A DNA stretch of 64,000 bases from Patescibacteria group bacterium (GTDB taxonomy: Bacteria > Patescibacteriota > CPR2 > UBA1875), in assembly GCA_041737595.1 (NCBI GenBank), contig JBGSRK010000011.1, forward strand, positions 66,658 to 130,657, in the 5' to 3' direction. The notes under the pieces were generated by a model that was given only the letters and a program-made list of their open reading frames with translations, searched no databases and was not told the origin of the DNA. Position 1 is the first letter of the stretch, and each line of letters starts with the position of its first letter. Made by a program: the position numbers and the translations under genes. This document shows positions 22,336 to 47,260 of the stretch, piece by piece.

Positions 22336-22412
22336 GGGCCTGTAGCTCAGTTGGCTAGAGCGCCTCGCTTGCACCGAGGAGGTCGCAGGTTCGATTCCTG
22401 TCAGGTCCACCA
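22336..22412 (+). tRNA. tRNA-Ala (anticodon TGC)
   Basis: 'gggcctgtagctcagttggctagagcgcctcgcttgcaccgagg...ggttcgattcctgtcaggtccacca'; G3:U70 Ala identity pair; encoded CCA. Confidence 0.95.
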
Positions 22413-22413
22413 T

Positions 22414-23922
22414 ATTACCATCAGAGTCAGAAATATGCTCTTTTATCCTGAAGGGAAGGGATAAACTGGGTGTTCCAAATCCCGTCGCCAAGGAGTATTC
22501 AGGGTTCTGAGTAAAGATCATATTGTGCAAAATGATTTTGGCTTCAGGACTGGCTTTCACCCACGTTTCAGCCGGTGTTCCGATGAATCTAAATACTAGC
22601 ATAAGAGCTTCCTGTATATCAGGGAGTTTTTTAGTTTCTGATTCTTTTTCGAATTCCCTTAATTGTCTGTCTACTTCCTCAATTTTTGTTTCATATCGGA
22701 CTCTTAGTCCTTCAGAGCGAGCCTTACGCACAAGATCAACATAGTCCTCAAGTGCCTGCTCAAGCTCCTTCTTTTCGTTTTCCTTGGCGTCATAGCCAAC
22801 ACTTAAATCCTTAACTTTTTCATCTCAAACCATTGTTGCCATAGCCATACCCATCTCAAGGACTTCTGGCCCAGCATTAATACTTTCAAGAAGTTGTATG
22901 TAATCACTCTCTAATTTAATGGGATCGATATTCTTTGGGTTAGCACTACATCCTTTATTATTACAGGTATAGTGGGGGTAGTATTTGTATTTGCCTTTAC
23001 ATACACTTCCAGTCATCTTTTTACCACAAACGGCGCAAGTGATAATTCTTCTCAAGGGAAATTCATAATTATCAGTTAATCGTGTTCTCTTTTCTGGCTT
23101 TGCTATTTTTGCCTGAATCTTATAATAGGTTTCTTCAGAGATAATAGCTTTGTGATGTCCGGGTCTTTTCGTGATTTCCCACTTATCAAACTCAATAATG
23201 CCTGCATAAAGCGGCTCTGTTAGTAATCTCTTGATAAGGTCAAAATTCACTTGCTTACTATTTCGTCCTATAAGAACATGAAAGTTCTTTGATATTAGAT
23301 AATTCATGAGATCTGTCTGACTCAATAAGCGGTTTTCTGCAAATGCATTTAATCCTTCTGATAGTACACTTGCTATAGACTTAATGGGGACAAGCAGCTT
23401 GCCGTGCTCCTTATCTTTCTGATACTCATAACCACAGGGTGCCATAAAACACCAATAACCACGCTCAATCCTTGCTTTCATTTTCTGGCAAACTTGTCTT
23501 CGGTTTTGCTTGCGTTCAAGCTGATTCTGGGCAGCAAAGATTGTTTCAACGAATTCACCCTCAGCACTGTCGTCAAAGTTATAATTCAGACATCGAAGTT
23601 TGGCTTCTCTAGCTCTTAGCTCTGACTTTAGTTTTATGTGGACTTCTACATCTCTTGCAAATCTCTTTAGGTCATCAAAAATAACAAAATACTTAGTCTG
23701 CCAGTTAATGTCTAAAAACCCGATTAATGATTGCATTGCTGGCCGATCAAATAGCCCCCCTGATATTCCCTCGTCTTTGAACACTTTTTCAACCTGTAGA
23801 CCAAGTGAGCGGGCATATTCTCTACACCTATGTTCCTGGCTATCCAAACCACTGCCTTCTCTGACTTGTTTTTCAGAGGAGACCCGGCAGTATATAACAG
23901 CTTTTGTGTAGTTTGCTTCCAT
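22414..23922 (-). pseudogene. large serine recombinase interrupted by one in-frame TGA; C-terminal coding runs into the tRNA-Ala 3' end
   Basis: N-terminal resolvase motif 'AVIYCRVSSEKQ'. ORF 22825-23922 and ORF 22222-22731 are in the same frame, separated only by TGA at 22825-22827. The tail 'NPEYSLATGFGTPSLSLPFRIKEHISDSDGN' aligns with the C-terminus of the intact paralog 37290-38906. Confidence 0.6.
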
Positions 23923-23926
23923 TATA

Positions 23927-24139
23927 TTACCTGAAATCGTCTAAATAATAATTAATTGATTTATCAATTATCCCAATCAGATAATTTCGGATTTCGGCAA
24001 CCTTCTCGTCACTTAAATTGAATTTCCCTAAATATTCTTTACACTCCTCAACACTAATAACCTTAGAGTCGGGAGTTTCGTGAGCACGAAAGGAACCTTG
24101 ACCAAGACCGTTAACGGCACTACCATGTGAGTTTTTCAT
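23927..24139 (-). CDS. small conserved protein upstream of the recombinase
   Basis: 70 aa; 'LSDEKVAEIRNYLIGIIDKSI' resembles 'ISDGDAEILRDSVRSLVDIIF' of ORF 40080-40262 upstream of the second recombinase. Confidence 0.35.
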   Translation of the reverse strand: MKNSHGSAVNGLGQGSFRAHETPDSKVISVEECKEYLGKFNLSDEKVAEIRNYLIGIIDKSINYYLDDFR

Positions 24140-24315
24140 ATTCCCTCCTATCTGTATATAGATAACTATATACTAATAATATATCTGTATACAGATAGTG
24201 TCAAGAGTAATTTACAAACAAACCGATATATTGTGATTCACCATAAAATGATTGACTTTTCTAATAAATTTGACTAACATTACGCTTAAACTAATGGAGG
24301 GTAGGAGTATGACTA

Positions 24316-26970
24316 ATGGATCTTCTCCAAGCCCACCTTGCCCCTACAACACTAAATGAGTTTCTTGCGGAAGTCAGACCGCTATGGTCTGCTCTGTTGG
24401 TTCTCTTGCCTCGTTTGGTTTACTTGTCGATCGGCGTCAGTACCATCTACGCCGTTGTTTACTTTCTTTTGAAATACCTTCGGCCACTAGCTACCAAAAG
24501 GGAGCCGTTTGTATTTTTAGAGCTGACCTTCCCCTCAAATACCAGCAAGAGCCCTTATTCGACCGAACAGCTATTTTCCCAGCTTCATGCATTAGCCAAA
24601 CAAAATAAGTTCTTTAGTAAAAAGGGTTATTCACTAGAAATAGCCGCTTCAAAAGAACAGGGAATCAGATATATCCTTGGAGCATCAGAAGACGATGCTG
24701 AGATTATTGAGAAGGGCCTTCTTTCTTACTTGCCAGGTTTAAAGATTAAGGAGATTAAAGACTATCTGCCCGCTGATCTTAAGCTCGACAAAAAGAGCAG
24801 TTTAATCGAATTCAAGTTGAAAGGCGACATTGCATTTCCTCTTCAGAAGCATCTCAAGCTTACCGAGCATGACCCAATCTCGTTTCTAACTGGCAATATG
24901 ACTAAGTTAAACAAAAATGATCTAATGGTTTTTCAGGCGATTATCACTCCACTAAGGCACCAAAGCCAGGAAGGTAGGCACATCTTCGATGTTAGACATA
25001 AGATTTATGGCCAAGAGGCCTTAATCGAGGAACTGTCCCAAAGGCAGTGGCGAAAACAGTGGTCTGATTCGCCTTTCGTCGTAATAAAATGGATCCTGAA
25101 AGCTTTTGGCTTTGTTATGAGTTTTCTTTTAAGCATGGTTCAAGCTTTTATGGACCATCGGAGTAGTAATATCTCTTATCTCCAGAATAAGCCGTCAGGA
25201 GTAAATAAAGAAGCGACCCAGAACCCTTATGAAGAAGAGCTAAAGCAGGAGGTCAAGGGTAAAGTTGAACAACCGTTATTTGAAACTTCTTTGCGGCTGT
25301 TCATTAAAACTAGCGAACATGCTCAAGTAAGGGTAAGGACTGCGGGATTTTTAGCCTCTTTTAACTCACTTGGTACCTCGTTTCAGTCCCTAGTTCTAAA
25401 AAAGGATAAACGATTACAGTTTCCAACTAGACTCAACCAGTTTTTAGTAAGACAGGTTTCTCCCGAGGGCAACCCAGTTCTTTCGATCACTGAACTTGCC
25501 GACATCTACCATTTCCCATTTACTAGCACTACTAAGACTGAAGACCTTGTAAAGAGCCACAGCCAAGAATTGCCAGCTCCTTTATCTCTTAAAAATAACG
25601 ATAACCTTGATGTTGTCTTTGGCATTAATAATTATGGTAATGCAGCTAGCGATATCGGCCTCACAGATGATGATCGGTCCCGTCACATGTATTTGATTGG
25701 ACAGACCGGCTCCGGTAAATCAACAATCATTTACCACATGGCATCTGACGATATTAGGAAGGGTCGAGGCGTTTGTGTCGTCGATCCTCATGGTGACTTA
25801 GCCGAAGGACTTTTAGAAGAAGTTCCCGATTCAAGGATAAACGACGTTATCTACCTAAATCCATTTGATATCAAACATCCCATCGGTATTAACCTTTTAG
25901 AGCTAACTCCAGGGCTAGAACCAGACGAAGCGGAGCTAGAGAAGGAAATTGTTTGTGAAAGCGTGATATCTATCCTACGAAGAATCTTTAGAAAAGATGA
26001 GAACACTGATTCACACAGAATTGAATATATCCTAAGAAATGCTATCTATACCGCCTATACCGTCCCAGATGCGACCATCTTCACCGTTTACGACCTTTTG
26101 AATGAGCCAAGCTTTAGAAAACAAGTAACACGGGACCTTGCTGACCCTAATCTCAAGAAGTTTTGGAAAAACGAGTTTGGTAAAGCTGGTGACTATCAAG
26201 TTGTTAAGATGGCAGGTGGTGTCACGGCTAAAATCGGTAGATTTTTGTTCTCGCCAATCGCTAAAAGAATCCTAGAGCAAAAACACTCAACGATAGATTT
26301 CGACGAGATTGTTGATAATGAAAAGATTCTGCTTTGTAACCTTGCCGAAGGTAAGCTAGGTGAAGATACGGCTCAGCTTCTAGGCACGGCCATTATCGCG
26401 AAGATCCATCTAGCCATGACTAGGCGCGCTCAGATGGACGCGACCAAAAGAAAACCTTTTTATCTCTTCGTTGATGAGTTCCAAAACTTTGCTACCAGTT
26501 CCTTTACTCGATTGCTTTCCGGAGGCAGAAAGTACGGGCTTAGAGTTACTATCGCAGAACAATCAACCGCCCAGCAAGATGATCGAAACATTATCAATGT
26601 TATTCTCGCTAACGTTGGCACAGTGGTATGCTTTAGGACGGCTAGTCCACTAGACGAGGGACTGATGATGCCTCAGTTTGCACCGCTTGTCGATGTAGGT
26701 GACATCGCCAATCTACCTCGGCACCATTTCTACATTAGACTAGCCGCTCTCGAGCCAGAGGATGCCTTTTCTGGTGAAACCCTCCCAATTCCTACAAGGA
26801 ACGACAAAGAACGAGTAATGAGGGTTATAAAGGCCTCAAGGAAGAACTATGCTATTACCTATGAGAAGCCAGTAGCAGAAACAAAGACACCAGAGGTACT
26901 AGAGAAAAAACCCAAAGTTAAAAAAGAGAAGGAAAAGGACTTGCCACAGGAGGTTAATGCACTCAGCTAG
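24316..26970 (+). CDS. VirD4/TraG-like coupling ATPase (element-borne paralog) with N-terminal TM helix
   Basis: Walker A 'LIGQTGSGKST', 'VVDPHGDLAE', 'LFVDEFQNFATSSF'; same motif order as 2106-4634. Confidence 0.6.
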   Translation: MDLLQAHLAPTTLNEFLAEVRPLWSALLVLLPRLVYLSIGVSTIYAVVYFLLKYLRPLATKREPFVFLELTFPSNTSKSPYSTEQLFSQLHALAKQNKFFSKKGYSLEIAASKEQGIRYILGASEDDAEIIEKGLLSYLPGLKIKEIKDYLPADLKLDKKSSLIEFKLKGDIAFPLQKHLKLTEHDPISFLTGNMTKLNKNDLMVFQAIITPLRHQSQEGRHIFDVRHKIYGQEALIEELSQRQWRKQWSDSPFVVIKWILKAFGFVMSFLLSMVQAFMDHRSSNISYLQNKPSGVNKEATQNPYEEELKQEVKGKVEQPLFETSLRLFIKTSEHAQVRVRTAGFLASFNSLGTSFQSLVLKKDKRLQFPTRLNQFLVRQVSPEGNPVLSITELADIYHFPFTSTTKTEDLVKSHSQELPAPLSLKNNDNLDVVFGINNYGNAASDIGLTDDDRSRHMYLIGQTGSGKSTIIYHMASDDIRKGRGVCVVDPHGDLAEGLLEEVPDSRINDVIYLNPFDIKHPIGINLLELTPGLEPDEAELEKEIVCESVISILRRIFRKDENTDSHRIEYILRNAIYTAYTVPDATIFTVYDLLNEPSFRKQVTRDLADPNLKKFWKNEFGKAGDYQVVKMAGGVTAKIGRFLFSPIAKRILEQKHSTIDFDEIVDNEKILLCNLAEGKLGEDTAQLLGTAIIAKIHLAMTRRAQMDATKRKPFYLFVDEFQNFATSSFTRLLSGGRKYGLRVTIAEQSTAQQDDRNIINVILANVGTVVCFRTASPLDEGLMMPQFAPLVDVGDIANLPRHHFYIRLAALEPEDAFSGETLPIPTRNDKERVMRVIKASRKNYAITYEKPVAETKTPEVLEKKPKVKKEKEKDLPQEVNALS

Positions 26971-27100
26971 GTCATGAAAATAGTGTACACTTACGTCCAC
27001 TAAATAAGCTGATTTTCGTGCTTAAATCTTATAAAACTACTACGTTAATATTTATATACTATATATATCTGACTAGCCAACTAACTAACTTACAAAAACT

Positions 27101-27883
27101 ATGAAGCAAACAACAACACAACCTACAATCAAACAAAGACAAATCGAAATACTTATCCTACTCTATCGGTTCCGCTATTTAAATAGAGCTCACATTCAAG
27201 CAATACTAGAACATAAATCAAGAAGTAAAATACTAGAATGGTTAAATGAACTAAAAGAAGAGAACTACATTGAGTGTGAGTTTGACAAGAAAATAGCATC
27301 GTCTCCTTCTGTATACTCATTAGCCCCCAAGTCTCGCAGTATCTTAAAAGATAACCCAATGATCAAACCCAGGCTTCTTGGTCATATTTGGAGGGATAAA
27401 ACATATTCTGATGAGTTCCGCGATCACTGTCTTTTCTTAGGCGATATCTACCTCTCGCTGATTACACTCACTAACAAGATCGGAGCAGAACTACATTATT
27501 ACACCAAGCCAGACCTACATGGTATGGGACACTTGATTACGCCTATCCCTGACGGCTACTTTGCCATTGAAGAAAACAGCGGGCGAACCAAACGATATTT
27601 TCTCGAACTCTTTGACGATCTGCCCCCTAGGTTTTTAAGAACTCGTCTCAATAGCTACTTTAAGTACTATGATTCGGATGAATGGCAATATAATACCGAC
27701 AAACCGTTTCCTGAAATCATTATTGTCTGTCCGAGTGATAGAATTAAAAGCCACCTTAGCTATTATATTCAGAGCAAGCTCGAAGAAGATTCAGAAATTG
27801 TTTTCCTCCTAACTACCAAAGAGATCATAAAAGTCCATGGATTGAGTAGTAAAGCATTACAAAAGATTGCACCGAAGGCATGA
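27101..27883 (+). CDS. replication-relaxation family-like wHTH protein
   Basis: N-terminal 'IKQRQIEILILLYRFRYLNRAHIQAIL' resembles the Replic_Relax signature; sits next to the coupling ATPase. Confidence 0.35.
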   Translation: MKQTTTQPTIKQRQIEILILLYRFRYLNRAHIQAILEHKSRSKILEWLNELKEENYIECEFDKKIASSPSVYSLAPKSRSILKDNPMIKPRLLGHIWRDKTYSDEFRDHCLFLGDIYLSLITLTNKIGAELHYYTKPDLHGMGHLITPIPDGYFAIEENSGRTKRYFLELFDDLPPRFLRTRLNSYFKYYDSDEWQYNTDKPFPEIIIVCPSDRIKSHLSYYIQSKLEEDSEIVFLLTTKEIIKVHGLSSKALQKIAPKA

Positions 27884-27923
27884 AAAAAGGCCCGAGAAGT
27901 TAAACACTTCCCGAGCCTCTTTT

Positions 27924-28247
27924 CTAGTACTCATCTGCGAGCATCACCGTCATCGCTCTTTTACAGTCATGAAATAGTGGATCAGCACCATATTCCATGT
28001 TCTGATCGTAGTAATCAATCTTCCAGAAGACTTTATCATCTTCCCACTTCAAACTTCCGAAGTCGTGTTCGCCGTAGGGATCATTATCTTCGTTAAAGTC
28101 ATTGAACAGTCTAATCCTACCCAATAGACTCTCTAGGTTTCTGATAGCTTGAACCCCTTGAGTCAAGATGACACCAAACCCTGACTCTCGAAACCGATCA
28201 TTTAAGACCGCTATGCTTGCAGCCTGAACATCTAACGCACTTACCAT
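27924..28247 (-). CDS. DUF3768-like small protein (plasmid/ICE-associated)
   Basis: 'NDPYGEHDFGSLKWEDDKVFWKIDYYD' resembles the conserved core of DUF3768 as I recall it. Confidence 0.3.
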   Translation of the reverse strand: MVSALDVQAASIAVLNDRFRESGFGVILTQGVQAIRNLESLLGRIRLFNDFNEDNDPYGEHDFGSLKWEDDKVFWKIDYYDQNMEYGADPLFHDCKRAMTVMLADEY

Positions 28248-28506
28248 TTCTTTTCTCCTTTCTTTTATTTTTTCTGGGCAAGTCGACCTCTTGCCTCAAG
28301 AAGGAGGGAAGAACAGCACTCTGGGCATGTCAAGGTGGAGCCCATCCGATTAAAAGCAATAGAAAAAGGGATCACCTTGATGTGCTCAGAACTGTTCTTA
28401 TAATGAGAAGGAATGGCAGGAGGTCGTTGCACCACACCGAAAACCAGAAGCTCTTTATTTTTACTCTTAAAAATGCTAGGATTAAGCCAAAGTAAGGAGA
28501 TTTTTA

Positions 28507-28928
28507 TGGCAGACGAAACCGAAAAGCCTGATGGTAGCAAAACTACTTTTAGTCATCAACTAAAGCCGGATCAGCCAGAATCGACAGAAGAACCGGTTGA
28601 TCCTGAAGCTCTTGCTAAAATTGAGAATAGAAAACAGAGAGTCAGTGCTAATGAGCGCCGACTAGCTGAGAGAAAAGAGCATGGCGAACTATCTGAAGCT
28701 GATTTTGGATTTAATGAAGTAAGCCAGCTAGACTCGGCCGGAATTCCTTTATCACGCAAAGCCGTGGGTAATAGAGCTGTTGTAATAACGCAAGAGGATC
28801 TTGAATACCTCGGGGGCATCGAAATGGTTACGGACAATGGAGAAACCGTGCTATTTTCCCCCGAAGTCACCGGGTATGACCTAGACGAAAGAATTATTAT
28901 CTGGCCAGAAGAACTTGGCGACATTTAA
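28507..28928 (+). CDS. hypothetical acidic protein
   Basis: ORF with AAGGAG RBS 8 nt upstream of ATG at 28507 (the track ORF begins at 28413). Confidence 0.35.
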
Positions 28929-28955
28929 ATCATGAAATAGTGAGGCAGTATATTT

Positions 28956-29582
28956 ATGAAGATACACATACTTGAATCCGAAGACTGGGCAAAGTGCACC
29001 CTTAGCAAAGAGGATGTCTCAAAATGGATCACCGAATCAGCTGAAGAAGCCTCTGCTTTACTTTTGGATGTCATGCCGACCTTAAATATTATCGTTAAGC
29101 CAAGTTTACCTCATATATCCAACAACAAGGGCGTTGGTGGTTCTACTTACGATTATGAGCTAGTAGACATTACTTTTGATACTGCGATTCCGTTGGGGGT
29201 TGATAAGTTTCGTAAATATCTTAGGGAAGCCATCTTTCACGAAATGAACCATGCAATGTATTCACGTTTCTTTCCTCGCGAGGGCAGGCAACTTTACTGG
29301 ACGGTTCTAGAAGGTCTAGGCACCGTTTTCGACCGAGACTACGCCGATGGCGAACACTTCACTAATGTCGAGACGGCCACCGATAAAGAAAAGCTGGGAT
29401 GGCTAAACAAATATATAGTTACTTCTACCAGGTATAGTGATGTTCCTGATGACTCGCAAGGTATGGTGTACCAAGTTGGGGTTTGGTTAGTTGATCGGGC
29501 AATAAAAAACTCTGGTAATAACGTCGTTGAACTTACACATTTATCGCCAGACGAGATATTGCAGATGGCTGATATTATATAG
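28956..29582 (+). CDS. putative zinc metallopeptidase-like protein (HExxH)
   Basis: 'IFHEMNHAMY' HExxH motif; no other recognisable domain. Confidence 0.3.
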   Translation: MKIHILESEDWAKCTLSKEDVSKWITESAEEASALLLDVMPTLNIIVKPSLPHISNNKGVGGSTYDYELVDITFDTAIPLGVDKFRKYLREAIFHEMNHAMYSRFFPREGRQLYWTVLEGLGTVFDRDYADGEHFTNVETATDKEKLGWLNKYIVTSTRYSDVPDDSQGMVYQVGVWLVDRAIKNSGNNVVELTHLSPDEILQMADII

Positions 29583-29674
29583 CTATTTACCAATACCATA
29601 ATATAATCTGTTCTTATAATTAGAATGATGGCAGGAGGTCAACACACTTATTACACTTATTCGGATATAATCAT

Positions 29675-37284: not shown

Positions 37285-37289
37285 TCGTC

Positions 37290-38906: not shown

Positions 38907-39021
38907 ATTTTCTCCTTAAATCAAATGGGGACAACCCTGCTGTACACAGACCCTTGCGGATACTGAACAGGATTGCCCCCAAATGGCAATATCCGCAATA
39001 TGAATCTGTGTACGCTTTAAA

Positions 39022-39744
39022 TTATAACACATTTATGCCTAGTTTCTTCATTCGTTTTTGTAGAATGTTAAGTTCATCCATCATCTCTTCTGGAGATTTT
39101 TCAACAGGTCTGTTATAACGAATTCTTGCTTTTGTAATTTTGAGTAAATCCTCTAGGGTATTAGATAGAGCCTTCAGTCTTTTCCCAGTGAAATCTTCTC
39201 CCTCAAGTTCATTAACGAAACCAAAGTCCGTAATTTCATTTATTCTTTCTAACTCGTTGAGGCTTAAAGCGTCAACGGAGGGTATTGTCGGGCTAGTTGT
39301 ATCCATTTCTATTGCTTTTAGGTATTTAGTTATGCCTTCTGTTGATTTCTTCATAGCTTCTTGATGAGAAATAGCAAGTAGTATACTCATCTCACGGCGT
39401 GCATTATGGTTATAAAGAACATTTAGCGAATACATTAATTCGGGTAAGTTTTTTTGATTAATTTGTTTGATTGAAGACTCCAACGCTTCTAGTACCAGTT
39501 TGTCTTCGCGTTCTGCTTCTTGGTACTGCCACTTAATTTCAGTAAGGTCAGTTGAAACGCAATAGATGGCAAAACGAATCTGGCACAAGGCAAGTTGTTG
39601 CTCTATAGGCATTTTTACAATATAGAGTTCTTCATTTCCTCTTGTCGTTCTGTTCATTGCAAGATTAAGTATGAAGATGGCTTTTTCTTCAAAAGACATA
39701 AAGTCAAAAATGTTGTTAATCTTCTTGTCGTCTTTGGATTGCAT
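39022..39744 (-). CDS. hypothetical protein (recombinase-module accessory)
   Basis: 240-aa ORF in an operon-like array with the recombinase. Confidence 0.35.
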   Translation of the reverse strand: MQSKDDKKINNIFDFMSFEEKAIFILNLAMNRTTRGNEELYIVKMPIEQQLALCQIRFAIYCVSTDLTEIKWQYQEAEREDKLVLEALESSIKQINQKNLPELMYSLNVLYNHNARREMSILLAISHQEAMKKSTEGITKYLKAIEMDTTSPTIPSVDALSLNELERINEITDFGFVNELEGEDFTGKRLKALSNTLEDLLKITKARIRYNRPVEKSPEEMMDELNILQKRMKKLGINVL

Positions 39745-40090
39745 TTGTAATCTCCTCTAATTTAATTTCTATTTGTGATTCCTTTATTGAGGCAAGCATT
39801 ATATTTGCTAGATAGCCTATGGTATTTGCCTCCTTAGGAGACAGCTCACCTTGTCTAATTTCATTGATGCACCTGTTCAGGAGCCTTGTAACGTCTTTTG
39901 AGTTACTAACATTGATGCTATCCTGCTCAACTCGGGGCTTCTTTATTTGTTGCCCGCCTTTTCTTACGGCTTCATATTTTTTATCGCTTAATTCTGGCTC
40001 GTGTGAAAAGCAGTAATCATACCCATTTACGGCGTAGGCACAGCATTTTTGACCATTCGGTTTAATATATTCACAGTGCTTACTCATCAC
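39716..40090 (-). CDS. Cys-rich small protein (putative zinc finger)
   Basis: 'CEYIKPNGQKCCAYAVNGYDYCFSH'. Confidence 0.35.
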   Translation of the reverse strand: MMSKHCEYIKPNGQKCCAYAVNGYDYCFSHEPELSDKKYEAVRKGGQQIKKPRVEQDSINVSNSKDVTRLLNRCINEIRQGELSPKEANTIGYLANIMLASIKESQIEIKLEEITNAIQRRQED

Positions 40091-40262
40091 GGCCTCCCTT
40101 ATCTAGTAAGTAAAGCTTATGGGGGGTTCCTTGTTTTTCTGCCAGCCACTTTTCAAAGATAATGTCTACTAATGAACGAACTGAATCTCTAAGAATCTCT
40201 GCATCCCCATCAGATATGGAGGAGTCCCCCAATAATCGTTTTGTTCGCTCAAGACTAATCAT
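40080..40262 (-). CDS. small conserved protein, homolog of 23927-24139
   Basis: shared 'SD..AEI......D.I' region. Confidence 0.3.
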   Translation of the reverse strand: MISLERTKRLLGDSSISDGDAEILRDSVRSLVDIIFEKWLAEKQGTPHKLYLLDKGGRDE

Positions 40263-40264
40263 TA

Positions 40265-40411
40265 TTATTTACCTATCTGTTCCTCAATAATCTCTTCAAG
40301 TAAAAATTTGACGCTTACCCCCTTCTCTGCTGAAGCTAGCTTCATTTTTTTATGTAGTTCAGAATTGATTCTTACTTGTTTTGATGTTGTTTTGTAAACT
40401 TGTCGCTTCAT
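40265..40411 (-). CDS. ribbon-helix-helix (CopG/Arc-like) small DNA-binding protein, unlisted ORF
   Basis: 'MKRQVYKTTSKQVRINSELHKKMKLASAEKGVSVKFLLEEIIEEQIGK' (49 codons) with GGAGAG RBS. Confidence 0.4.
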   Translation of the reverse strand: MKRQVYKTTSKQVRINSELHKKMKLASAEKGVSVKFLLEEIIEEQIGK

Positions 40412-40630
40412 AATTCTCTCCTTTCAGCCTTAGTATCCTCTCCCTCCCACCAGCCGTTTTCCTTCCTCTGAGCAGTAGACTTCACTTAGTGTGTTTATCT
40501 ACTGGCCTGCTCGTCGTTAAGGTATCCGTGTGGACTTATAGGTCGGGCTAGCAATCCTGATATATTTCTTTTAAGTCGCATATCACACTTGCTAGTAGTA
40601 TCTTCCACGACTGTAATTATTATAAAACGA

Positions 40631-40665
40631 AAAAAATCACCTTAAATTCTAGGATTCAAGGTGAC
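40631..40665 (-). terminator. rho-independent terminator of gene 40693-41628
   Basis: minus-strand hairpin 'tcaccttgaatcctagaatttaaggtga' followed by ttttttt. Confidence 0.45.
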
Positions 40666-40692
40666 AGTTAAACTATATTTTATGAAGCGAGA

Positions 40693-41628
40693 TTATTTAC
40701 CAATTAATCTTTTTCTGATAGCTGATTTAGTAACTCCTGTTTTCTTTCCAACCATTTCGTATATTTCGGCTTTGCTTCTATACTCACCACTATTGCTAGA
40801 GCTAGTCTTTAGCTCACTGAACATCTGGGTTGTTTTTTCTGCCTTGTTTCTGTCTTTGTAATCACGCTTGACAGCACCTCTTAAGAAGCCCTGAAATCTA
40901 TCAAGGTTAGAGTCAACTAGGTCCATTATTTCTGATTTAGTTGTATCTTTATCAAAGACAATGCTACATTCCCAAGAAGCATCGTCATCGCTCCAATTTA
41001 ATCTAAGGGACGTGCTATTGTTTGCTGGTACTAGTCGATTAAAAAGAATCAGCTCAATGATTGCTTTTTTATATCTGTTGGGTAGGTCCCATCTTCTAAG
41101 AACGCTGTAAGCCACGGAACCTATTTCCTTATTTGCCTTTGCGATTGCCCCACCACGGTGAAGTGCCAGCTCTTTTGCCTCTTTGTAATCATTCATAAAC
41201 CTGCCTATAAACCATTTTTCAAACGCGGGACTTATAGGGTTTTCTTGAGAAGAATTCAAGAAAATGTAATCAATCGTATATTGAAACTTCTCTGGCAGGT
41301 CATTTGATAGAGCAAACCCTGTATTTGGTCTAGGCATTCCAAGCGCTTTTCTTGCCTCAATCATTGTATTTTTATCTTGTGTAGACAGCTTGTTATGAGC
41401 TAGGTCTTTTGCTCTTTCTTTGTAGGGGTAGCTTCCTTTTGATGTTAGCAATGGCACAACATTATCGGTCAGCATTCTTTTGAAAACGTTTAACTCCCCA
41501 ATCATATAGTAATCTTTTTCAAAACCAAAGGTTTCCAGTGTCTTTCGAGTAAAATTACCATTCTCTTGACGATAATCCTCAAAGATACCTGACCTGTTAA
41601 GTTGTTCAATAAATCCATTTATATCCAT
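40693..41628 (-). CDS. hypothetical protein divergent from the Dcm methyltransferase (candidate R-M partner)
   Basis: 311-aa ORF; no recognisable motif; position. Confidence 0.3.
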   Translation of the reverse strand: MDINGFIEQLNRSGIFEDYRQENGNFTRKTLETFGFEKDYYMIGELNVFKRMLTDNVVPLLTSKGSYPYKERAKDLAHNKLSTQDKNTMIEARKALGMPRPNTGFALSNDLPEKFQYTIDYIFLNSSQENPISPAFEKWFIGRFMNDYKEAKELALHRGGAIAKANKEIGSVAYSVLRRWDLPNRYKKAIIELILFNRLVPANNSTSLRLNWSDDDASWECSIVFDKDTTKSEIMDLVDSNLDRFQGFLRGAVKRDYKDRNKAEKTTQMFSELKTSSSNSGEYRSKAEIYEMVGKKTGVTKSAIRKRLIGK

Positions 41629-41706
41629 AATTATATTCTAATCCTATAGGTGTATGTGTGACAAGTCGCTTTGTACACTATCATTTAAGGAGCAAAATGG
41701 TTTATA

Positions 41707-42765
41707 ATGACAGTAATGAAAACACCAAGCTTATTTAATAAGATTGAGGAAAAATCAGGGGATTTTACATTTATTGACCTTTTCGCAGGCATCGGAGGGA
41801 TTCGGCTTGGCTTTGAACAAAACGGTGGTGAATGTGTTTACTCATCAGAATGGGATAAATTTGCGCAACTAACATATCAGGCTAATTTTCAAGAATTGCC
41901 AAGTGGTGACATTACAAAAATAGACCCGAAAGTAATTCCTCCTTTTGATGTGCTAATGGCTGGTTTTCCTTGCCAACCATTCTCTATGGCCGGTAAGAAA
42001 CGAGGGTTTGAAGATACTCGAGGAACAATGTTCTTTTATATCGCTAAGATTATTGAGAAACACAAGCCTAAAGCTATTTTACTTGAGAATGTAAAAAACT
42101 TCAGGTCTCACGATAAAGGAAATACATTAAAGACCGTGGTGAGTGTTCTTGAAGACCTAGGATATTCAATCCAGTACAAGGTTCTAAATGCCAAGGATTT
42201 TGGGGTACCTCAGAACAGAGAAAGAATCTATATAGTAGGGTTTAGGGGCAAGACAAATTTCGAGTTTCCTGAGTCAGTGGGAACAGTGACAAGACTTGGA
42301 GATATTCTTGAAAATAATGTTGACTCTAAGTACACCATATCTGATAAACTCTGGGCGGGACATCAGAGAAGAAAGGAAATGCATAAAATCAAAGGTAACG
42401 GTTTTGGGTACTCCCTTTTTAATGAGGACAGTGTTTATACAAGTACTATTTCTGCTAGGTATTATAAGGATGGTTCAGAAATTCTGATTGAACAAAAGGG
42501 TAAGAATCCAAGAAAGCTCACCCCAAGAGAGGCTGGGAGGCTACAGGGGTTCCCAGATAGCTACCTGATACCAGTAAGCGATAATCAGGCTTATAAACAA
42601 TTCGGTAATAGTGTGGCTGTCCCAGTTATTAATGCAGTTGCTTGTAATATGGTAAAGGGAATGAATGATTTGGCTGAGTCAAAGAATAAAGCCCGTATAA
42701 GCGCGGTTGATATAGATGCTATTATGGTTAACAAGGCGGAAGGTGATGTTTGCTATGAAAATTAA
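41707..42765 (+). CDS. dcm: DNA (cytosine-5)-methyltransferase
   Basis: motif I 'FIDLFAGIGGIRLGF', motif IV 'GFPCQPFS', 'ENV' motif VI, 'QFGNSVAVPVI' motif X. Confidence 0.85.
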   Translation: MTVMKTPSLFNKIEEKSGDFTFIDLFAGIGGIRLGFEQNGGECVYSSEWDKFAQLTYQANFQELPSGDITKIDPKVIPPFDVLMAGFPCQPFSMAGKKRGFEDTRGTMFFYIAKIIEKHKPKAILLENVKNFRSHDKGNTLKTVVSVLEDLGYSIQYKVLNAKDFGVPQNRERIYIVGFRGKTNFEFPESVGTVTRLGDILENNVDSKYTISDKLWAGHQRRKEMHKIKGNGFGYSLFNEDSVYTSTISARYYKDGSEILIEQKGKNPRKLTPREAGRLQGFPDSYLIPVSDNQAYKQFGNSVAVPVINAVACNMVKGMNDLAESKNKARISAVDIDAIMVNKAEGDVCYEN

Positions 42766-43780
42766 TGATTTAGAAATTACACAAACAAAGTTAGACGTAA
42801 ATTATAAACTATACCTATTTTTAAAAGAGCTAAATGGCGGTAATGGCCTCACGGAAGCAATGCTTTCATTTTTTTTAGAACTCATCAGTTCTTTTAAGGA
42901 CGCGGACTATGAAAATGCTAGAAGATTATTTATTGATAAGATTAATAATTGGCCTAAGCTGAGCGATAGTAAGAAAGAAAATATACTATCCCTATTTTAT
43001 GAGATTGATGAAGAAAACGACTTTGTGCTTTTAAAGTTTGCCTTGAAAATTCTTGCCGTGAAACCATTGTTACTTGAAGAGGCAAAATTGGCTCAAACAT
43101 CAAAACTAGTAAACACCGACGGGCTACACCTTCTTTCTCTAGAATTTGATAGAATAAGTAAAAGCAAACCATATTATACGCGAGTAAATGGAGCATTGGT
43201 TTCATTAGTATTTTTTGAGAAGATTGAAAGTGGCAAAGATGGCTTTCTTTTGGGAGTTAATGCTGATTTTACAAAATCGCTGATTGAAGAAGCAAAAACA
43301 ATTTGTAGTATGGGAGTTGAGCCTAATCAGATATTTATGATTATGTTTATGGAATGTATCAACCAATCCATAGTATCTGATGCAGGTGGTAGTTATGAGG
43401 ATAGGATTGAAGATGTTCTCGTTTCAATGGGAATACCAAGAGAAAGTATAAAGAAGATTCACGATAAAGATGATAATGCGACAGAATTTGACTTTTTCTT
43501 TGAGTTAAATGGTAAAACTATTGGAATTGGAGCTAAAAGAACTTTAAGAGAACGATATAAGCAATTTATTAAAACAGCTCAAATGTCACAGATAGACATT
43601 ATGATTGAGGTAACCCTAGGACTTGACCTGACACAAAATAAGGTTGAGGCAATCGCAAATCACGGCGTCTACCTATTTGTAGCAGATGAGATTTATAATT
43701 CACTTGAATACTTACACAAATTTGATAAGGTTTATCCCGTATCAAAGTTTACTATGGATGTTTTTAAGTCACTCAAATAA
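42755..43780 (+). CDS. hypothetical protein downstream of, and overlapping, the m5C MTase (candidate type II restriction endonuclease)
   Basis: Position only. ATG at 42755 has a GGAAGGTG RBS; the track ORF starts at 42716. Confidence 0.3.
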   Translation: MKINDLEITQTKLDVNYKLYLFLKELNGGNGLTEAMLSFFLELISSFKDADYENARRLFIDKINNWPKLSDSKKENILSLFYEIDEENDFVLLKFALKILAVKPLLLEEAKLAQTSKLVNTDGLHLLSLEFDRISKSKPYYTRVNGALVSLVFFEKIESGKDGFLLGVNADFTKSLIEEAKTICSMGVEPNQIFMIMFMECINQSIVSDAGGSYEDRIEDVLVSMGIPRESIKKIHDKDDNATEFDFFFELNGKTIGIGAKRTLRERYKQFIKTAQMSQIDIMIEVTLGLDLTQNKVEAIANHGVYLFVADEIYNSLEYLHKFDKVYPVSKFTMDVFKSLK

Positions 43781-43835
43781 TTACTTAGACAAAGGATGAA
43801 CAGCACGGTTAAAAACTGAGGTATGGGGCAAAATT

Positions 43836-44300
43836 ATGAACGATTCGATGTATTATGAGATAGCTAGGTATATAAAAACGAAAGGCTGGAAAGATTCTCC
43901 AGAATCAAATACTTTTTGCGAAGGTAAAAAGATTATTAACAACACCTGTATTTGTGTCAGTGGATGTGTCGGGAATTGTTCAACTGGTGAGCAACTCAGT
44001 GCTAAAGAAACCTTTTTGAATGTAATAGTTAACCACGATATTGAAAGTAGAGAAATCCATTCAATTACCTTTGGTGTTTTGGCTGGAAAGGATTTCGAGA
44101 ATAGGAGGGATTGTTTTCGTGTTGATTTTGATAAAAAGGGCTGGCATATTGATGCAGAAGGCTATAAGCCACATATGAAGATAAACGCTGATTTAGAAGC
44201 TGAGGACCCTAATGAATATACAAAAATAATCGACCTTATAGTGGCATATGGCCAAGGATTACCCAGAATGAATGACACTGGTTTGCAACTCGTTTATTAG
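43836..44300 (+). CDS. hypothetical Cys-containing protein
   Basis: 154-aa ORF. Confidence 0.3.
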   Translation: MNDSMYYEIARYIKTKGWKDSPESNTFCEGKKIINNTCICVSGCVGNCSTGEQLSAKETFLNVIVNHDIESREIHSITFGVLAGKDFENRRDCFRVDFDKKGWHIDAEGYKPHMKINADLEAEDPNEYTKIIDLIVAYGQGLPRMNDTGLQLVY

Positions 44301-44382
44301 CGTTAATTATAAGAGAGCTGACAATTTGGACCGCTTGAAGTAGGATTTAGCAAATAGCTTAAGGTTTTTCCCTAGGTAGAGT

Positions 44383-45495
44383 ATGATTATGCAAATAGTA
44401 TATTTCCCATATCTTAATATGCAACAAAAGGACGAATATCTTTTTAATGATGGCTATATTAAAATATGGAATTTCAAGCTAAAGGGAAAAGATTATATTA
44501 AAGATGTAGAGCTGTACAAAAAAATTAAGGCGTTAGTTTGCTCCAATATACACGGAGGAAGAGCAATTGAAGATGTTGGTATCCTAGCTATCGGCAACTG
44601 TGATTTTCGTGAGTTTAGCAAAGGCGAAATGGATACCGCCGAAGAACTGAAGTTTCTTCTTTTTATCTCACACGTATCAAACAACGCAAAACTTGGGCAG
44701 GATGTGAATGCTGGTCATTATGCATATACATCAGAAAACTTTGATTTAGTAATTCAAAACTTCAGGATGGATAACGAATACTTTGGCATTCAGGATGGCT
44801 TTATAGTAAGAATGTCAATCGGTGGCTATCAGATTGGAAAGAAAACATTCCAAACCCCTGCTTATCTCTTGAAACCAATGGGAATTTCTATGGATGAGAA
44901 CCTATTAAACTCATTGTTTGAATTGAAGAAAAAGAAACCAACGTTATATAACAGAGTTATGGAAGCTATTAAAATATTCTTTCTTAGCTACTATAATTCT
45001 CCTGCTTTAAGTCAGAACGCAAGAATACTTTTACAGGTGTCAGCATTTGAAGTTTTACTTAAAATTCCAAACAGTGAGCAAAGGAGGCATTTCAGAGAAA
45101 CAATAGAAAGACTGTGCTCTTCATCTAATGAAAAACAAGTATCTTACTGGTCGGAGGCTTATGGTAGAAAAAAAATAAGAAGAATGGGAACATTGAAGGC
45201 CCGCTGGGCTGACGGTTTTTACCTTCTAAGAAATCACATTATTCACGGAAATAAGATTAAGTCTAAAGAATATCTTTTCTGTAATAAACAAAATTATTTT
45301 GATACTTGTCTTCTGTTTTTTATATTATCTATAAAGAGACTTATAGAGAACGCATTAAAGAAACCCGTCTTTTATGATGCGATAAAATGGTCGAAGCGAA
45401 AGGATGATTTCGGCAACATTATTGAGGGCTTTATTTATGAAAATGGTACTCTACAGCTTATTGTTGAAAAGGAGCTCTCTAAGTGGGGAATGTAA
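44383..45495 (+). CDS. hypothetical protein with HEPN-like Rx4-6H motif (Abi-like?)
   Basis: 'FYLLRNHIIHGNKI' near the C-terminus; context next to DUF4238 and R-M. Confidence 0.3.
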   Translation: MIMQIVYFPYLNMQQKDEYLFNDGYIKIWNFKLKGKDYIKDVELYKKIKALVCSNIHGGRAIEDVGILAIGNCDFREFSKGEMDTAEELKFLLFISHVSNNAKLGQDVNAGHYAYTSENFDLVIQNFRMDNEYFGIQDGFIVRMSIGGYQIGKKTFQTPAYLLKPMGISMDENLLNSLFELKKKKPTLYNRVMEAIKIFFLSYYNSPALSQNARILLQVSAFEVLLKIPNSEQRRHFRETIERLCSSSNEKQVSYWSEAYGRKKIRRMGTLKARWADGFYLLRNHIIHGNKIKSKEYLFCNKQNYFDTCLLFFILSIKRLIENALKKPVFYDAIKWSKRKDDFGNIIEGFIYENGTLQLIVEKELSKWGM

Positions 45496-45527
45496 TTACA
45501 ACAAACTAACAGAGGAGAACTTGTTAT

Positions 45528-46385
45528 ATGAGAGCTAAAGCTCAGCATTATGTGCCAAGATTTTATTTAAAAAACTTTTCTAAAAAAAAGGGCTCAAAGT
45601 ACATTACTCAGTGCTATAGCAAACAAGATGGCAAGGTCTTTTCTGTAAATATTACAAAAATCTGTCAAGAAAATGGGTTCTACGACGTGAAGACGGATGA
45701 TTATCTGTTTTCAATTGAAGAAAACTTAGCTGAATTTGAGTCAAAGGTGGCTCCTGTCTATAAAAAACTCGTAGACAGCAAAAAGTTGTCTGTGTTAGAC
45801 AACGAAGGAAAGATTGCAATTGCTACCTTTGTAATTTTACAAATGCTTCGGACTCCTGAACAAAGAATATCATTTCGGCATATGGAGCAACAACTTGCTG
45901 ATAGGTTCCCTGGTTTTGAAAAGAACTTTGTGGGTGAGAGAAACAAAGAAAATTCAATTTCTCATATTACTTTTTTAAACGAAAATGTTAATGAGTTCGT
46001 GTTTATACTAATGCAACTGAAATGGGTGCTAATTTTGGCACCAGACCATTCTTTTTGGACTTCAGACAACCCCGTTTATAAACATAACGAACTTAAGTCA
46101 AAGTTCCGTGGCACTCTAGGTCTAGCGTGTAAGAGTATTCAGGTTATTCTTCCTCTGTCACACAATTTGCTGTTAATGATATTTGATGGCGATACCTACA
46201 CGAATATTAAAACTGATGAGGTTACTGCAAATTCAGAAAATATAAAACACTATAACTTTGGACAAATAGTTTGTTCGATTAGGCATATTTTCGGTGAAAA
46301 ACCGAACTTTACTCTTGCAGAAAAAATCCTTAGAGAATCTCCTGAATATATGAATCCCGATAGGATAAGAACAAAAATGTCTTAG
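45528..46385 (+). CDS. DUF4238-family protein
   Basis: N-terminal 'QHYVPRFYLKNF' resembles the DUF4238 signature. Confidence 0.45.
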   Translation: MRAKAQHYVPRFYLKNFSKKKGSKYITQCYSKQDGKVFSVNITKICQENGFYDVKTDDYLFSIEENLAEFESKVAPVYKKLVDSKKLSVLDNEGKIAIATFVILQMLRTPEQRISFRHMEQQLADRFPGFEKNFVGERNKENSISHITFLNENVNEFVFILMQLKWVLILAPDHSFWTSDNPVYKHNELKSKFRGTLGLACKSIQVILPLSHNLLLMIFDGDTYTNIKTDEVTANSENIKHYNFGQIVCSIRHIFGEKPNFTLAEKILRESPEYMNPDRIRTKMS

Positions 46386-46519
46386 CTTTTAAATTCAAAA
46401 TTAAGAGAGAATGTGTTAATATTTATATAGAAAATTGAATATTCGCCTAACCCTTGTGACTCGTCATAAGGTATGGCATAAAAATCCGTTCAAAGTATAA
46501 AGCTCTTCGTCAGAGCACT

Positions 46520-47074
46520 TTGAACGGTCGTGTCCCGAAAGGGATGTGGGTGACTTCGGTCATCGCTGGCGGGGAGCTTTTTGATACTCCGTACAAAGGA
46601 GAACTTGTGAAATCATTTTGTGTAAAATGCGATAAGCAACAGGAAATGCTGAACGTAAAAGACAAATACTACCCGAAAGTTGGAAAGCCTGGTTTTGAGG
46701 GTATATGTTTGATTTGTGGTAGGAAATTGTATAGAGTAGGTTCTGAAAAGGAAATAAAGAAAGACGATATTGAGAGTCAATATAGCAAGATAGAGGAAAT
46801 AAAGAATACTTGTATGGCTTGTAAAAATGTATGGTTTTATGGAGTAAATGAAAAGCCTAAGGAGTTAAGTATTTCAGACAAGCTTCATAATTTATCGGTG
46901 TCGTATGAGAATACAGCAAAAACTGGCTTAGCAATTACTGGATTTTTACCAGCTTTTTTACTCCCTGACAAAGAAAAAAGGAAAGCGCCAGAAAACCCAG
47001 ATAGAAGTAGGTGCCCTAAATGTGGCTCAAAAGCAATAAAGACTAAAAAGGTTGTCCATAAGTTTAAGAAATAG
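46520..47074 (+). CDS. multi-zinc-ribbon protein
   Basis: 'CVKCDKQQ', 'CLICGRK', 'CMACKNVW', 'CPKCGSK' CxxC pairs. Confidence 0.35.
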   Translation: MNGRVPKGMWVTSVIAGGELFDTPYKGELVKSFCVKCDKQQEMLNVKDKYYPKVGKPGFEGICLICGRKLYRVGSEKEIKKDDIESQYSKIEEIKNTCMACKNVWFYGVNEKPKELSISDKLHNLSVSYENTAKTGLAITGFLPAFLLPDKEKRKAPENPDRSRCPKCGSKAIKTKKVVHKFKK

Positions 47075-47260
47075 TCAATTCTAAGCTTTGCCAAGCCCAG
47101 AGTTCCGTGATAATTCCGTTCCAACTATTTTTCACGTAGTCCACCATAAATTTAATGGCTAAATAGAGCCATTATTTTTATTATGATATAATACATTTAT
47201 CAGTATAAAATATGGTTTATTGATAGTAAAAAATATTTATAAACGTAAAAAAAAGGGTCC

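Follow-up and report, generated by a model that had tools for sequence, protein, structure and literature searches.

Two probable tandem integrative elements behind a Patescibacteria tRNA-Ala gene, with recombinase genes split at their attachment sites

The tRNA-Ala(TGC) gene of a Patescibacteria group bacterium (assembly GCA_041737595.1, contig JBGSRK010000011.1) is followed by a block of about 25 kb that carries two genes for large serine recombinases (LSRs). The locus raises the question whether this block is one mobile element or several. The analysis covered 64,000 nucleotides (positions 66,658 to 130,657 of the contig), referred to as the window, and all coordinates are window positions (Table 1). 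An initial annotation had described a single conjugative-type element with the second recombinase module among its cargo. The block very probably consists of two independent tandem elements, A beside the tRNA gene and B beside the host chromosome. Each would have been inserted by its own LSR (LSR1 and LSR2), the gene of which spans the attachment site of the circular element (attP).

Core repeats and composition

The 10-mer GTCCACCATA was present in three exact copies in the window. About 0.05 copies were expected, and none of 100 shuffled sequences reached three. The initial annotation had placed the outer boundaries at the first and last copy, and both were exact; the third copy, at 37389, had gone unnoticed. 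It separates A from B. GC content was 0.417 in A and 0.369 in B, compared with 0.288-0.332 in four flanking host reference segments. The tetranucleotide distance to the host was 0.41 for A and 0.30 for B, whereas host segments differed from each other by 0.11-0.16. The compositional contrast noted at first was thus upheld, and together with the core repeats and the comparison with a related host (below) it supports horizontal acquisition at the tRNA-Ala 3' end.

The tRNA-Ala(TGC) gene remains intact after integration, and the tRNA duplication at the junctions comprises 8 nt only. Both outer junctions were matched at 100% identity by Logan assemblies of run SRR28170473, where contig L028 corresponds to window 22340-25922 and L116 to window 45989-48107. 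Just beyond the right core, a terminator-like site (47153-47174) followed by TTTTTATTAT showed a fold of -14 kcal/mol (z = -4.5). The empty site (attB) was reconstructed as CGAGGAGGTCGCAGGTTCGATTCCTGTCAG-GTCCACCATA-AATTTAATGGCTAAATAGAGCCATTATTTT, attP of A as GACAAAGGTGTTCCAATATTTCTGGTTACG-GTCCACCATA-TTACCATCAGAGTCAGAAATATGCTCTTTT and attP of B as GATAATTCCGTTCCAACTATTTTTCACGTA-GTCCACCATA-GAAAATTTATTCAGCCCGATGTCCCTGTTT.

Recombinase genes and their split tails

Both recombinases carried PF00239, PF07508 and PF13408 and exceeded the length of ~400 aa used as the criterion for LSRs. The N-terminal domain (NTD) aligned to the integrase of TP901-1, and the alignment took in the catalytic motif RVS(S/T). 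LSR1 and LSR2 were ~30% identical. Each LSR body lay directly right of a core, and the same layout was found in the metagenome loci L029, L074 and L105. In both LSR families, the core was positioned at a conserved (L/M)-V-(D/E) triplet, ~25-35 codons ahead of the natural stop.

LSR1 runs on the minus strand into the tRNA gene, as had been annotated: the tRNA ends at 22412, and the LSR1 frame enters the antisense tRNA. This had been taken for the classic signature of an integrase-proximal attL, which is a trait of tyrosine integrases; here, the gene is that of an LSR, and its open reading frame (ORF) is split by integration. The called ORF ends at an in-frame TGA (22825-22827) that the initial annotation had not registered. 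Beyond this codon the frame goes on (...MATMV-stop-DEKVKD...SDSDGNMVD) up to the tRNA CCA end, where its codons ATG-GTG-GAC are the reverse complement of GTCCACCAT, and crosses the antisense tRNA as far as 22222. The TGA replaces the codon of W366, a residue that was invariant in an alignment of 26 native-tail homologues from both families, and it was also present in Logan contig L028. With a premature stop and without its native tail, the LSR1 body is probably a pseudogene. Recoding of TGA was considered for this stop and rejected: code 11 leaves the host genes intact, TGA serves as the final stop in two of 22 host ORFs, and the other gene with a nonsense codon carries a TAG.

The second recombinase was annotated as an ORF of 538 aa (P0121; 37290-38906, minus strand). 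The middle core falls on its codons M504-V505-D506, which align with NMVD of LSR1 at the tRNA junction. The tail that follows (37290-37388, RNQKYWNTFVKIALEWEPKLRIIYD) resembled the native tails of the LSR1-family proteins P0055, P0076, P0080 and P0013. The tail at 47064-47138 resembled native tails of the LSR2 family (..SWNQIIxELxAWQxL..), as in P0130, P0133, P0156 and P0198. Judged by these alignments, the annotated P0121 is a chimera in which the tail of LSR1 has been joined to the body of LSR2. An LSR1-type tail beside the LSR2 body and an LSR2-type tail at the right end of the block point to two tandem elements in the order tRNA, A, B, host. The spaced motif GTTCCAA-N14-TCCACCA occurred in the window solely in the tail arms, once to the left of the core at 37389 and once to the left of that at 47139. 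Related DNA left of both cores, together with the MVD frames, argues that attP lies inside the recombinase genes and that the C-terminal tails were split off.

The tail is well conserved. V505, W512, N513 and W522 were invariant or nearly so in the alignment of the 26 native-tail proteins of both families. In the AlphaFold model of P0013 (mean pLDDT 84), the tail forms a single long helix of residues 510-539, with block-mean pLDDT values of 83-86 over 511-530. The entropy of the tail DNA was 1.06, 0.86 and 1.12 at codon positions 1 to 3, values that do not separate constraint on the protein from constraint on the DNA.

The 70-aa ORF directly upstream of LSR1 had tblastn matches in 49 fetched loci, each time adjoining an LSR, and its counterparts were called as genes of 68-70 aa in L030, L031, L032 and L033. 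It had no Pfam or NCBIfam match. It might be an accessory or directionality factor.

A B-type element alone at the orthologous tRNA gene

A contig from the Joint Genome Institute (JGI), L029, originates from a related host, with the 16S rRNA gene ~88-91%, GyrB 74% and murI 54% identical to those of the window. Both sequences share the synteny gyrA...methyltransferase...16S. The order in L029 is 16S, tRNA-Ile, tRNA-Ala(TGC), LSR, an element of ~9.8 kb, a far-end tail MVDYVKNSWNDLIKEI..., terminator and murI. The tRNA-Ala gene matched window 22335-22412 at 91% identity, and the adjoining LSR (P0122) was 88% identical to LSR2. DNA homology to the window started exactly at 37388 and amounted to 78.8% over 1639 nt (window 37388-39026). 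At the far end, a stretch of 34 nt reaching to 47150 was 97% identical. Just 8 bp, GTCCACCA, were common to both L029 junctions. The cargo of L029, with an N6 methylase, a helicase and a reverse transcriptase (RT), was unlike that of B. Only the LSR, a 430-nt segment (window 40146-40578, 70% identical to a small-ORF region of L029) and the tail end were shared. By gene order and homology, L029 shows this site occupied by a B-type element alone, A being absent. For the initially proposed comparison with genomes lacking the insertion, the absence of A from L029 is partial support; a fully empty site was not found. A B-type element alone, with different cargo, rules out a syntenic, non-mobile origin of the block.

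About 110 nt past the far end of the L029 element (1590-1604), an extra 15-nt fragment of a tRNA-Ala 3' end (TTTGGTGGACCCGAC) was accompanied by a second terminator hairpin. Possibly, the fragment is a scar left by an element that occupied the site before.

These data bear on the original description, a single integrative conjugative element of ~25 kb. On that view, attL lies at 22405 and attR at 47139, and the second recombinase would belong to the internal cargo or be a resolvase. Neither the outer repeats nor the compositional block is in doubt, and A and B could behave as a single unit, should LSR2 recombine attL and attR; joint mobilisation of tandem elements by accretion was proposed for Dehalococcoides islands (PMC3146451). 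A single element is improbable, since a third identical core is located exactly between the two gene sets, an LSR1-type tail lies left of the middle core and an LSR2-type tail at 47.1 kb, GC content differs between A and B, and the homology of the lone B-type element in L029 begins at the middle core. The second recombinase module is accordingly assigned as the integrase of B.

Recombinase families in databases and metagenomes

LSR1, read through its TGA, had ~2000 database relatives. The top 120 listed were 41-75% identical, and those longer than ~480 aa covered 95-100% of the query. Homologues shared a conserved GFGTPxLSLPF...(L/M)V(D/E) region, after which two classes of C-terminus were found. 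Among the matches listed, most ended in translations of antisense tRNA or transfer-messenger RNA (tmRNA), e.g. PTGFEPATSSVQTRRST or VRGVAPLSKR, and ~10 had a native tail, e.g. P0055 with LDLEIWNTFCEIALEWEPKLRQVYD and P0076 with LSRKFWNTFFEIALEWEPTLRLIYD. The 120 LSR2-family proteins listed comprised 65 with antisense-tRNA-like peptide ends and 47 with native tails (e.g. P0198, DYIVNSWNSIIAELQAWQEL). Tail classes of these database proteins were assigned by manual counts and a simple rule.

The metagenome scan yielded 80 loci, and the following counts cover the 75 with a near-complete LSR. The LSR 3' end overlapped an antisense tRNA or tmRNA gene in 45 loci: tRNA-Ala with anticodon GGC, TGC or CGC in 18, tmRNA in 26 and tRNA-Leu in one. 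A native tail without a tRNA was present in ~6 loci, and in the remainder the contig was broken off at the junction. The tmRNA has a tRNA-Ala-like acceptor and T-arm, so the LSR family appears to read the shape of the tRNA-Ala/tmRNA 3' end. In L041 (3219-3305), an LSR1-family member adjoins antisense tRNA-Leu(gag), which suggests an occasional target switch in this family.

The far end, a core followed by an in-frame W-N...W tail, was seen in L029, L074, L105 and L033. In L029, L074 and the window, this core is followed by a terminator hairpin, which belongs to the tRNA or tmRNA gene and has been displaced from it. Three loci (L033, L034 and L036) held an unsplit native-tail LSR1-type gene directly followed by an XRE regulator, a PLD nuclease and a ~118-aa ORF. 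This gene order is the junction predicted by circularising A, that is, by joining its two ends. Two tail-type arms were also found in L033 (1601, 11510) and L105 (2979, 4777). Judged by such arms, these elements seem to be arrayed in tandem frequently, and database LSR ORFs that look intact probably include chimeras of the P0121 kind.

Native-tail LSR2-type recombinases (P0151, P0157, P0210 and P0223) were located on large contigs labelled Omnitrophota and Ignavibacteriales, one of them 2.5 Mb long. The LSR2 family is therefore not confined to Patescibacteria. A phage origin was considered and is unlikely: a scan of IMG/VR gave a single irrelevant match at 30%, and matches in phage and plasmid collections did not exceed 28.4% identity.

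The breadth of these families also bears on the suspicion that foreign contigs were joined to the host contig at conserved tRNA/rRNA sequence during assembly or binning. Regions of this kind are typical for chimeric joins, GC shifts occur at the junctions, and the middle junction was seen in one assembly only. The 10 nt shared at the junctions are too short for an assembler overlap, attL and attR were reproduced in an independent Logan assembly, and dozens of unrelated metagenome contigs share this architecture, as does L029 at its orthologous tRNA. As each LSR tail is moreover found precisely where integration predicts it, an assembly artefact is scarcely credible.

An old, fixed and non-mobile lineage region with domesticated recombinases, in which the 10-mers arose by chance or derive from the tRNA, is only marginally more plausible and remains highly improbable. 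LSR1 and the genes for VirB4 and an M23 hydrolase are degraded, so A at least is probably immobile, and an excised form or empty site was not found. Such a region is at odds with the different cargo of L029 at the same site and with a composition not ameliorated to the host. LSR1 and M23 each contain one nonsense codon in an otherwise conserved ORF, which implies recent decay, and other metagenome contigs hold genes with 75% identity to LSR1 and 81-83% identity to the VirB4 fragment.

Proposed mechanism and order of insertion

Anatomy, split genes, family-wide targeting of tRNA-Ala/tmRNA and tandem order were observed directly. They are best explained by two tandem elements of the following kind. 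In both LSR families, attP of the circular element would lie inside the recombinase gene, with a shared core complementary to the tRNA end GTCCACCA. Recombination of attP with attB, presumably catalysed by the LSRs, would take place somewhere within GTCCACCA. It would regenerate the tRNA or tmRNA, leave the LSR body reading into the antisense tRNA and transfer the last ~25-32 LSR codons, which encode the W-N...W tail, to the element's far end, beside the displaced tRNA terminator.

A was probably the later arrival and would have inserted at the tRNA end that had been restored at the left junction of B. This order is suggested by the position of A next to the tRNA, by its composition, which is further from the host, and by the tRNA half being the sole part of attB conserved across hosts. 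A would no longer be able to move alone. Because the terminator was displaced by 24.7 kb, transcription of the rRNA/tRNA unit would now run antisense into LSR1, and this might silence the integrase.

Several observations weigh against the tandem arrangement with attP-spanning genes. The middle junction (37389) is known from a single assembly of a metagenome-assembled genome (MAG), and exact look-ups of the XRE protein and P0121 gave no record supporting it elsewhere. The empty site, tRNA-Ala directly before 47149 onward, was not found: a scan of genome contigs with purF returned only matches of at most 51% identity, scattered across phyla, and exact look-ups of purF, the type IV coupling protein (T4CP) and an 82-aa ORF found no record. 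The closest GyrB relative (L117, 86%) stops short of the 16S gene and gives no view of the tRNA-Ala site. The excised circle suggested for verification at the outset was not found either, as no fetched native-tail contig had terminal overlaps. Dyad symmetry in the reconstructed attB and attP was weak (9-11 of 24 matches) and did not separate the models. The 10-bp core exceeds the 2-bp crossover needed by serine recombinases and therefore does not fix the exact crossover point. Neither LSR showed a sign of present activity, with a stop codon in LSR1 and a foreign tail on LSR2.

The tail exchange might in addition be a built-in switch that controls the directionality of recombination or senses the state of the element, although we regard this as rather unlikely. 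The conserved C-terminal helix of ~30 residues would be available only on the circle or behind another element, and that form of the enzyme would be competent for integration. The enzyme of an integrated copy, ending in an antisense-tRNA peptide, would be excision-prone or inert. Directionality would then be set by gene topology and not solely by a separate directionality factor. As a corollary, the tail-coding TTGGAAC would double as an attP arm that mimics the tRNA T-loop TTCGAAC, displaced by 4 bp. In all 11 tail arms, TTGG(A/C)AC kept a constant spacing to the core, 22 nt from the T of TGG. The T-loop TTCGAAC was 18 nt from the core in most of the tRNA-Ala arms listed (TCGAAC in 11 of 19, TTGAAC in the rest). 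A structural model by Rutherford et al. from 2013 reportedly has a similar motif displaced by ~4-5 bp between the attP and attB half-sites of serine integrases. The offset of the two motifs is a lead that would fit this half-site model.

Table 1. Positions of the host features, the cores and the genes of elements A and B in the window
Feature	Position	Strand	Remarks
16S rRNA gene	20124-21611
tRNA-Ile	21913-21989		downstream of the 16S rRNA gene
tRNA-Ala(TGC)	22336-22412	+	ARAGORN; Rfam tRNA, 70.9 bits; 3' end is the integration target (left attB arm)
attL core GTCCACCATA	22405-22414		tRNA acceptor end, CCA, then TA
Element A	22415-37388		15.0 kb
LSR1 body, putative integrase of A	22413-23922	-	Pfam Resolvase, Recombinase, Zn_ribbon_recom; ORF 22825-23922
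70-aa ORF	23927-24139	-
T4CP-like ATPase	24316-26970	+	884 aa; Pfam TrwB_AAD_bind, TraG-D_C; partial NCBIfam matches to VirD4-like/TraD
Replic_Relax protein	27101-27883	+	Pfam
DUF3768	27924-28247	-	Pfam; recurs in 12 related loci
171-aa ORF; DUF2268-like protein	within 27924-30781		cargo of A
Fic protein	29675-30781		Pfam
VirB4 C-terminal ORF	31729-32550	+	~275 aa; N-terminal part lost
M23 hydrolase	32550-33188	+	in-frame TAG at 32901-32903
DGR target gene	33303-34082		259-aa ORF; ends in the variable repeat (VR), 33953-34084
DGR template repeat (TR)	34459-34590		132-nt repeat, 90% identical to VR
DGR avd	34591-34989	-	Pfam bAvd
DGR RT	34900-35979	+	Pfam RVT_1
120-aa ORF	within 36001-37284	-	right-end module of A
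PLD-family nuclease	36373-37005	-	Pfam
XRE regulator	37057-37284	+	Pfam
Detached LSR1 C-terminal tail	37290-37388	-	RNQKYWNTFVKIALEWEPKLRIIYDSLDNPDC-stop; last 32 codons of the annotated 538-aa 'LSR2' ORF
Middle core GTCCACCATA, A/B junction	37389-37398		at the homologous M-V-D codons of both LSRs
Element B	37399-47138		9.7 kb
LSR2 body, putative integrase of B	37399-38906	-	Pfam; intact, with a tail of LSR1 type attached
ORFs of 240, 124 and 311 aa, small ORFs	39022-47074 (body of B)
Small-ORF region with 48-aa ORF	40080-40411		possibly ribbon-helix-helix-like
C5 DNA methylase	41707-42765		Pfam; PADLOC Type II MTase
EcoRII-C-like nuclease	42716-43780
ORFs of 154 and 370 aa			listed between the EcoRII-C-like nuclease and DUF4238
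DUF4238	45528-46385		Pfam; PADLOC DUF4238-Pers candidate
LOOT RNA (RF03000)	46444-46564		Rfam, 90.3 bits
Zn-ribbon ORF	46520-47074
Detached LSR2 C-terminal tail	47064-47138	-	MVD-YVKNSWNGIITELWAWQSLELTIS-stop, directly left of the 47139 core
attR core GTCCACCATA	47139-47148		junction reproduced in Logan contig L116
Hairpin and T-run	47153-47184	+	displaced native terminator of the 16S-tRNA-Ile-tRNA-Ala unit; right attB arm

Gene content of element A

The cargo initially listed for the block was present throughout and in the same order (Pfam, PADLOC, NCBIfam). In A, the genes for the T4CP and the Replic_Relax protein were full length, and the T4CP was 52% identical over ~815 aa to that of L038 and other loci. 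L038 carries, beside an LSR and tRNA-Ala, a type IV secretion system (T4SS) pilin, TrbL/VirB6-like and PrgI proteins, a VirB4 of 596 aa, an M23 hydrolase of 208 aa, a T4CP of 874 aa and Replic_Relax. The VirB4 ORF of the window corresponded to residues 320-595 of the L038 VirB4 at 82% identity. It aligned to positions 498-735 of a VirB4-like model of 752 positions, and its best match was the CD1110-family model. The M23 region aligned over all 208 aa of the L038 hydrolase, with the stop opposite a Glu. The VirB4-M23 block is inverted relative to L038. For four L038 genes, namely those for the pilin, the TrbL-like protein, the PrgI-like protein and a 205-aa protein with a weak TraC match, no counterpart was found in the window, and A lacked the complete mating-pore set of VirB4, VirB6-like, pilin/VirB3-like protein and hydrolase. 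A canonical MOB relaxase family was not detected among the window proteins with Pfam and NCBIfam. With the TGA in LSR1, the TAG in M23, the VirB4 fragment and the missing pore genes, A is, on gene content, a decaying copy of a conjugative-type element and probably immobile now. The designation 'conjugative-type' thus suits the A family, as seen in the L038 set, and the genes that A retains; most of the set is lost or broken in A, and no transfer genes were present in B.

The 171-aa ORF, the DUF2268-like protein and Fic were not common to related loci, where Fic had one weak match (27% identity, L089). The diversity-generating retroelement (DGR) is genuine, with RT, Avd and a TR/VR pair in which 11 of 13 mismatches are at TR adenines. 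It is a recurrent cargo of LSR1-type elements, with RT and Avd matches in 5-6 fetched loci. The avd gene is encoded on the strand opposite to RT and placed between TR and RT, with TR abutting its 3' end. A divergent avd/RT layout was likewise present in the related loci L046 and L062.

Gene content of element B

B appears from its gene content as a restriction-modification (R-M) and defence island of ~10 kb. The possible ribbon-helix-helix-like nature of the 48-aa ORF is suggested by a weak Omega_Repress match of a neighbouring ORF in L029 and by reading of the sequence. The LOOT RNA precedes the Zn-ribbon ORF, whose start is probably the GTG at 46608, by ~40 nt and was not present in L029, L030 and L033.

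Genomic setting

The chromosome around the block has a low GC content of ~0.29-0.33. The window GyrB was 70-75% identical to proteins labelled 'Patescibacteria group bacterium' and was also close to those of candidate division WS5 and Howlettbacteria. The 23S and 5S rRNA genes were located at 55283-58992, 33 kb past the 16S/tRNA part. The interval 47.2-54.8 kb is filled by ordinary host genes (purF, murI, EamA transporter, murD, response regulator), so the rRNA genes are unlinked even without the insertion. The 23S match (55283-58678) comprised 3396 nt compared with a model of 2925 positions, leaving ~470 nt extra, inside which no Rfam intron or other family was matched at E <= 0.01. Between tRNA-Ile and tRNA-Ala, within the 16S-tRNA unit, lies the 82-aa ORF (22008-22256) for a membrane-like protein. 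The same spot in L029 (11855-12559) holds a GIY-YIG ORF and small ORFs, and further ORFs are located between the 16S and tRNA-Ile genes of L029.

The host chromosome has its own T4CP/VirD4-like ATPase of 842 aa (2106-4634), upstream of gyrB, which is syntenic in the closest relative L117 (7364-9895). A T4CP-like gene by itself is therefore no evidence of a mobile element in this lineage. A second high-GC stretch (10001-16500; GC 0.417, tetranucleotide distance 0.45) encodes a 374-aa ORF and a 1668-aa Big_13/cadherin-like surface protein. As L117 has a 376-aa ORF and large ORFs at this place, the stretch is probably native and not an island.

Comparison with known systems

LSR1 and LSR2 share the domain order Resolvase NTD, Recombinase, Zn ribbon and coiled coil with the integrases of A118/LI, TP901-1, phiC31 and Bxb1 and with CcrB of SCCmec. 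The best matches to solved structures were the TP901-1 NTD (E 1.9e-14) and the A118 C-terminal domain (E 1.6e-5). Characterised LSRs integrate site-specifically at a short common core, as in the window. Phage and plasmid LSRs were at most 28.4% identical to the window LSRs, and none aligned over the tail. To our knowledge, known LSRs target protein-coding or intergenic sites, with attP outside the integrase ORF.

In SSV1-type fuselloviruses, attP is located within the integrase gene, and integration into a tRNA gene splits the integrase ORF to both ends of the provirus. The SSV integrases are archaeal tyrosine recombinases, and the split takes the N-terminal piece and inactivates the gene. The enzymes of the window, in contrast, are serine recombinases, and only the last ~25-32 residues are exchanged.

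We know of no demonstration of conjugation in Patescibacteria. The L038 set is like the minimal modules of Firmicutes-type integrative and conjugative elements (VirB4 CD1110, VirD4 CD1115, PrgI, TrbL-like protein and hydrolase), whereas only the T4CP and Replic_Relax genes are intact in the window.

The islands of tyrosine integrases of the Islander type (PMC4383910) likewise use tRNA/tmRNA 3' ends, regenerate the gene, displace a 3' fragment and accrete in tandem. In the window, the repeats hold only 8 nt of the tRNA and the recombinase is of the serine family; a Phage_integrase-type (tyrosine) domain was absent from the ~38 block ORFs scanned. Targeting of tRNA genes by serine integrases was stated to be unknown (PMC4383910).

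The annotation of the window is corrected to two elements, a chimeric second-recombinase ORF and a probably dead first integrase. Compact elements of conjugative type, with a DGR and with defence genes are added for bacteria of the candidate phyla radiation (CPR), where mobile elements and genetic tools are scarce. The observation made on Dehalococcoides in 2011 is extended to hundreds to thousands of database LSR relatives with attP-spanning genes, in Patescibacteria and a few other phyla. Most relatives examined end in antisense tRNA or tmRNA, and tRNA-Ala/tmRNA 3' ends were thought to be used only by tyrosine integrases. Whether the tail swap controls directionality, and how a serine integrase reads a tRNA end, are now testable questions. 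Integrases specific to such near-universal ends could serve genome engineering.

The closest precedent are the ssrA islands of Dehalococcoides, which form tandem arrays behind the tmRNA gene and encode the recombinase DsiB (McMurdie et al. 2011, BMC Genomics 12:287; PMC3146451). A gene spanning attP in this way was noted earlier only at that tmRNA gene, and no description of such elements in Patescibacteria was found in the literature. New relative to the Dehalococcoides work is that the displaced fragment encodes the conserved W-N...W tail. The systems differ in target and repeat (tRNA-Ala(TGC) behind 16S with a 10-bp core, compared with ssrA and a 20-bp repeat), in host (Patescibacteria, not Chloroflexi) and in the T4SS-like module of the A family, as the ssrA islands were judged non-conjugative (PMC3146451). 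The six-gene module of the ssrA islands (DsiB, DsiA, RecF-like, ParB-like, Mom-like and a large protein) was not present in the window; the ORFs of 22.2-47.1 kb held no small serine recombinase (DsiA-like), ParB, RecF or Mom domains, and the published Dehalococcoides ssrA-repeat primer was absent from all fetched loci. The likeness lies in an LSR of ~540 aa on the reverse strand directly beside attL and in variable cargo behind a conserved integration module. The tmRNA gene is also the target of 26 LSR1 relatives. As described for DsiB, the LSR 3' end overlaps attL, with LSR1 running into antisense tRNA-Ala and LSR2 into the end of A, and the islands stand in tandem with direct repeats of the target 3' end (22405, 37389, 47139); L033 and L105 also look tandem. 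The authors of the Dehalococcoides study speculated that a full dsiB gene may exist only in the circular form or where it follows an adjacent island (PMC3146451), and the latter case is exactly the situation of LSR2 in the window.

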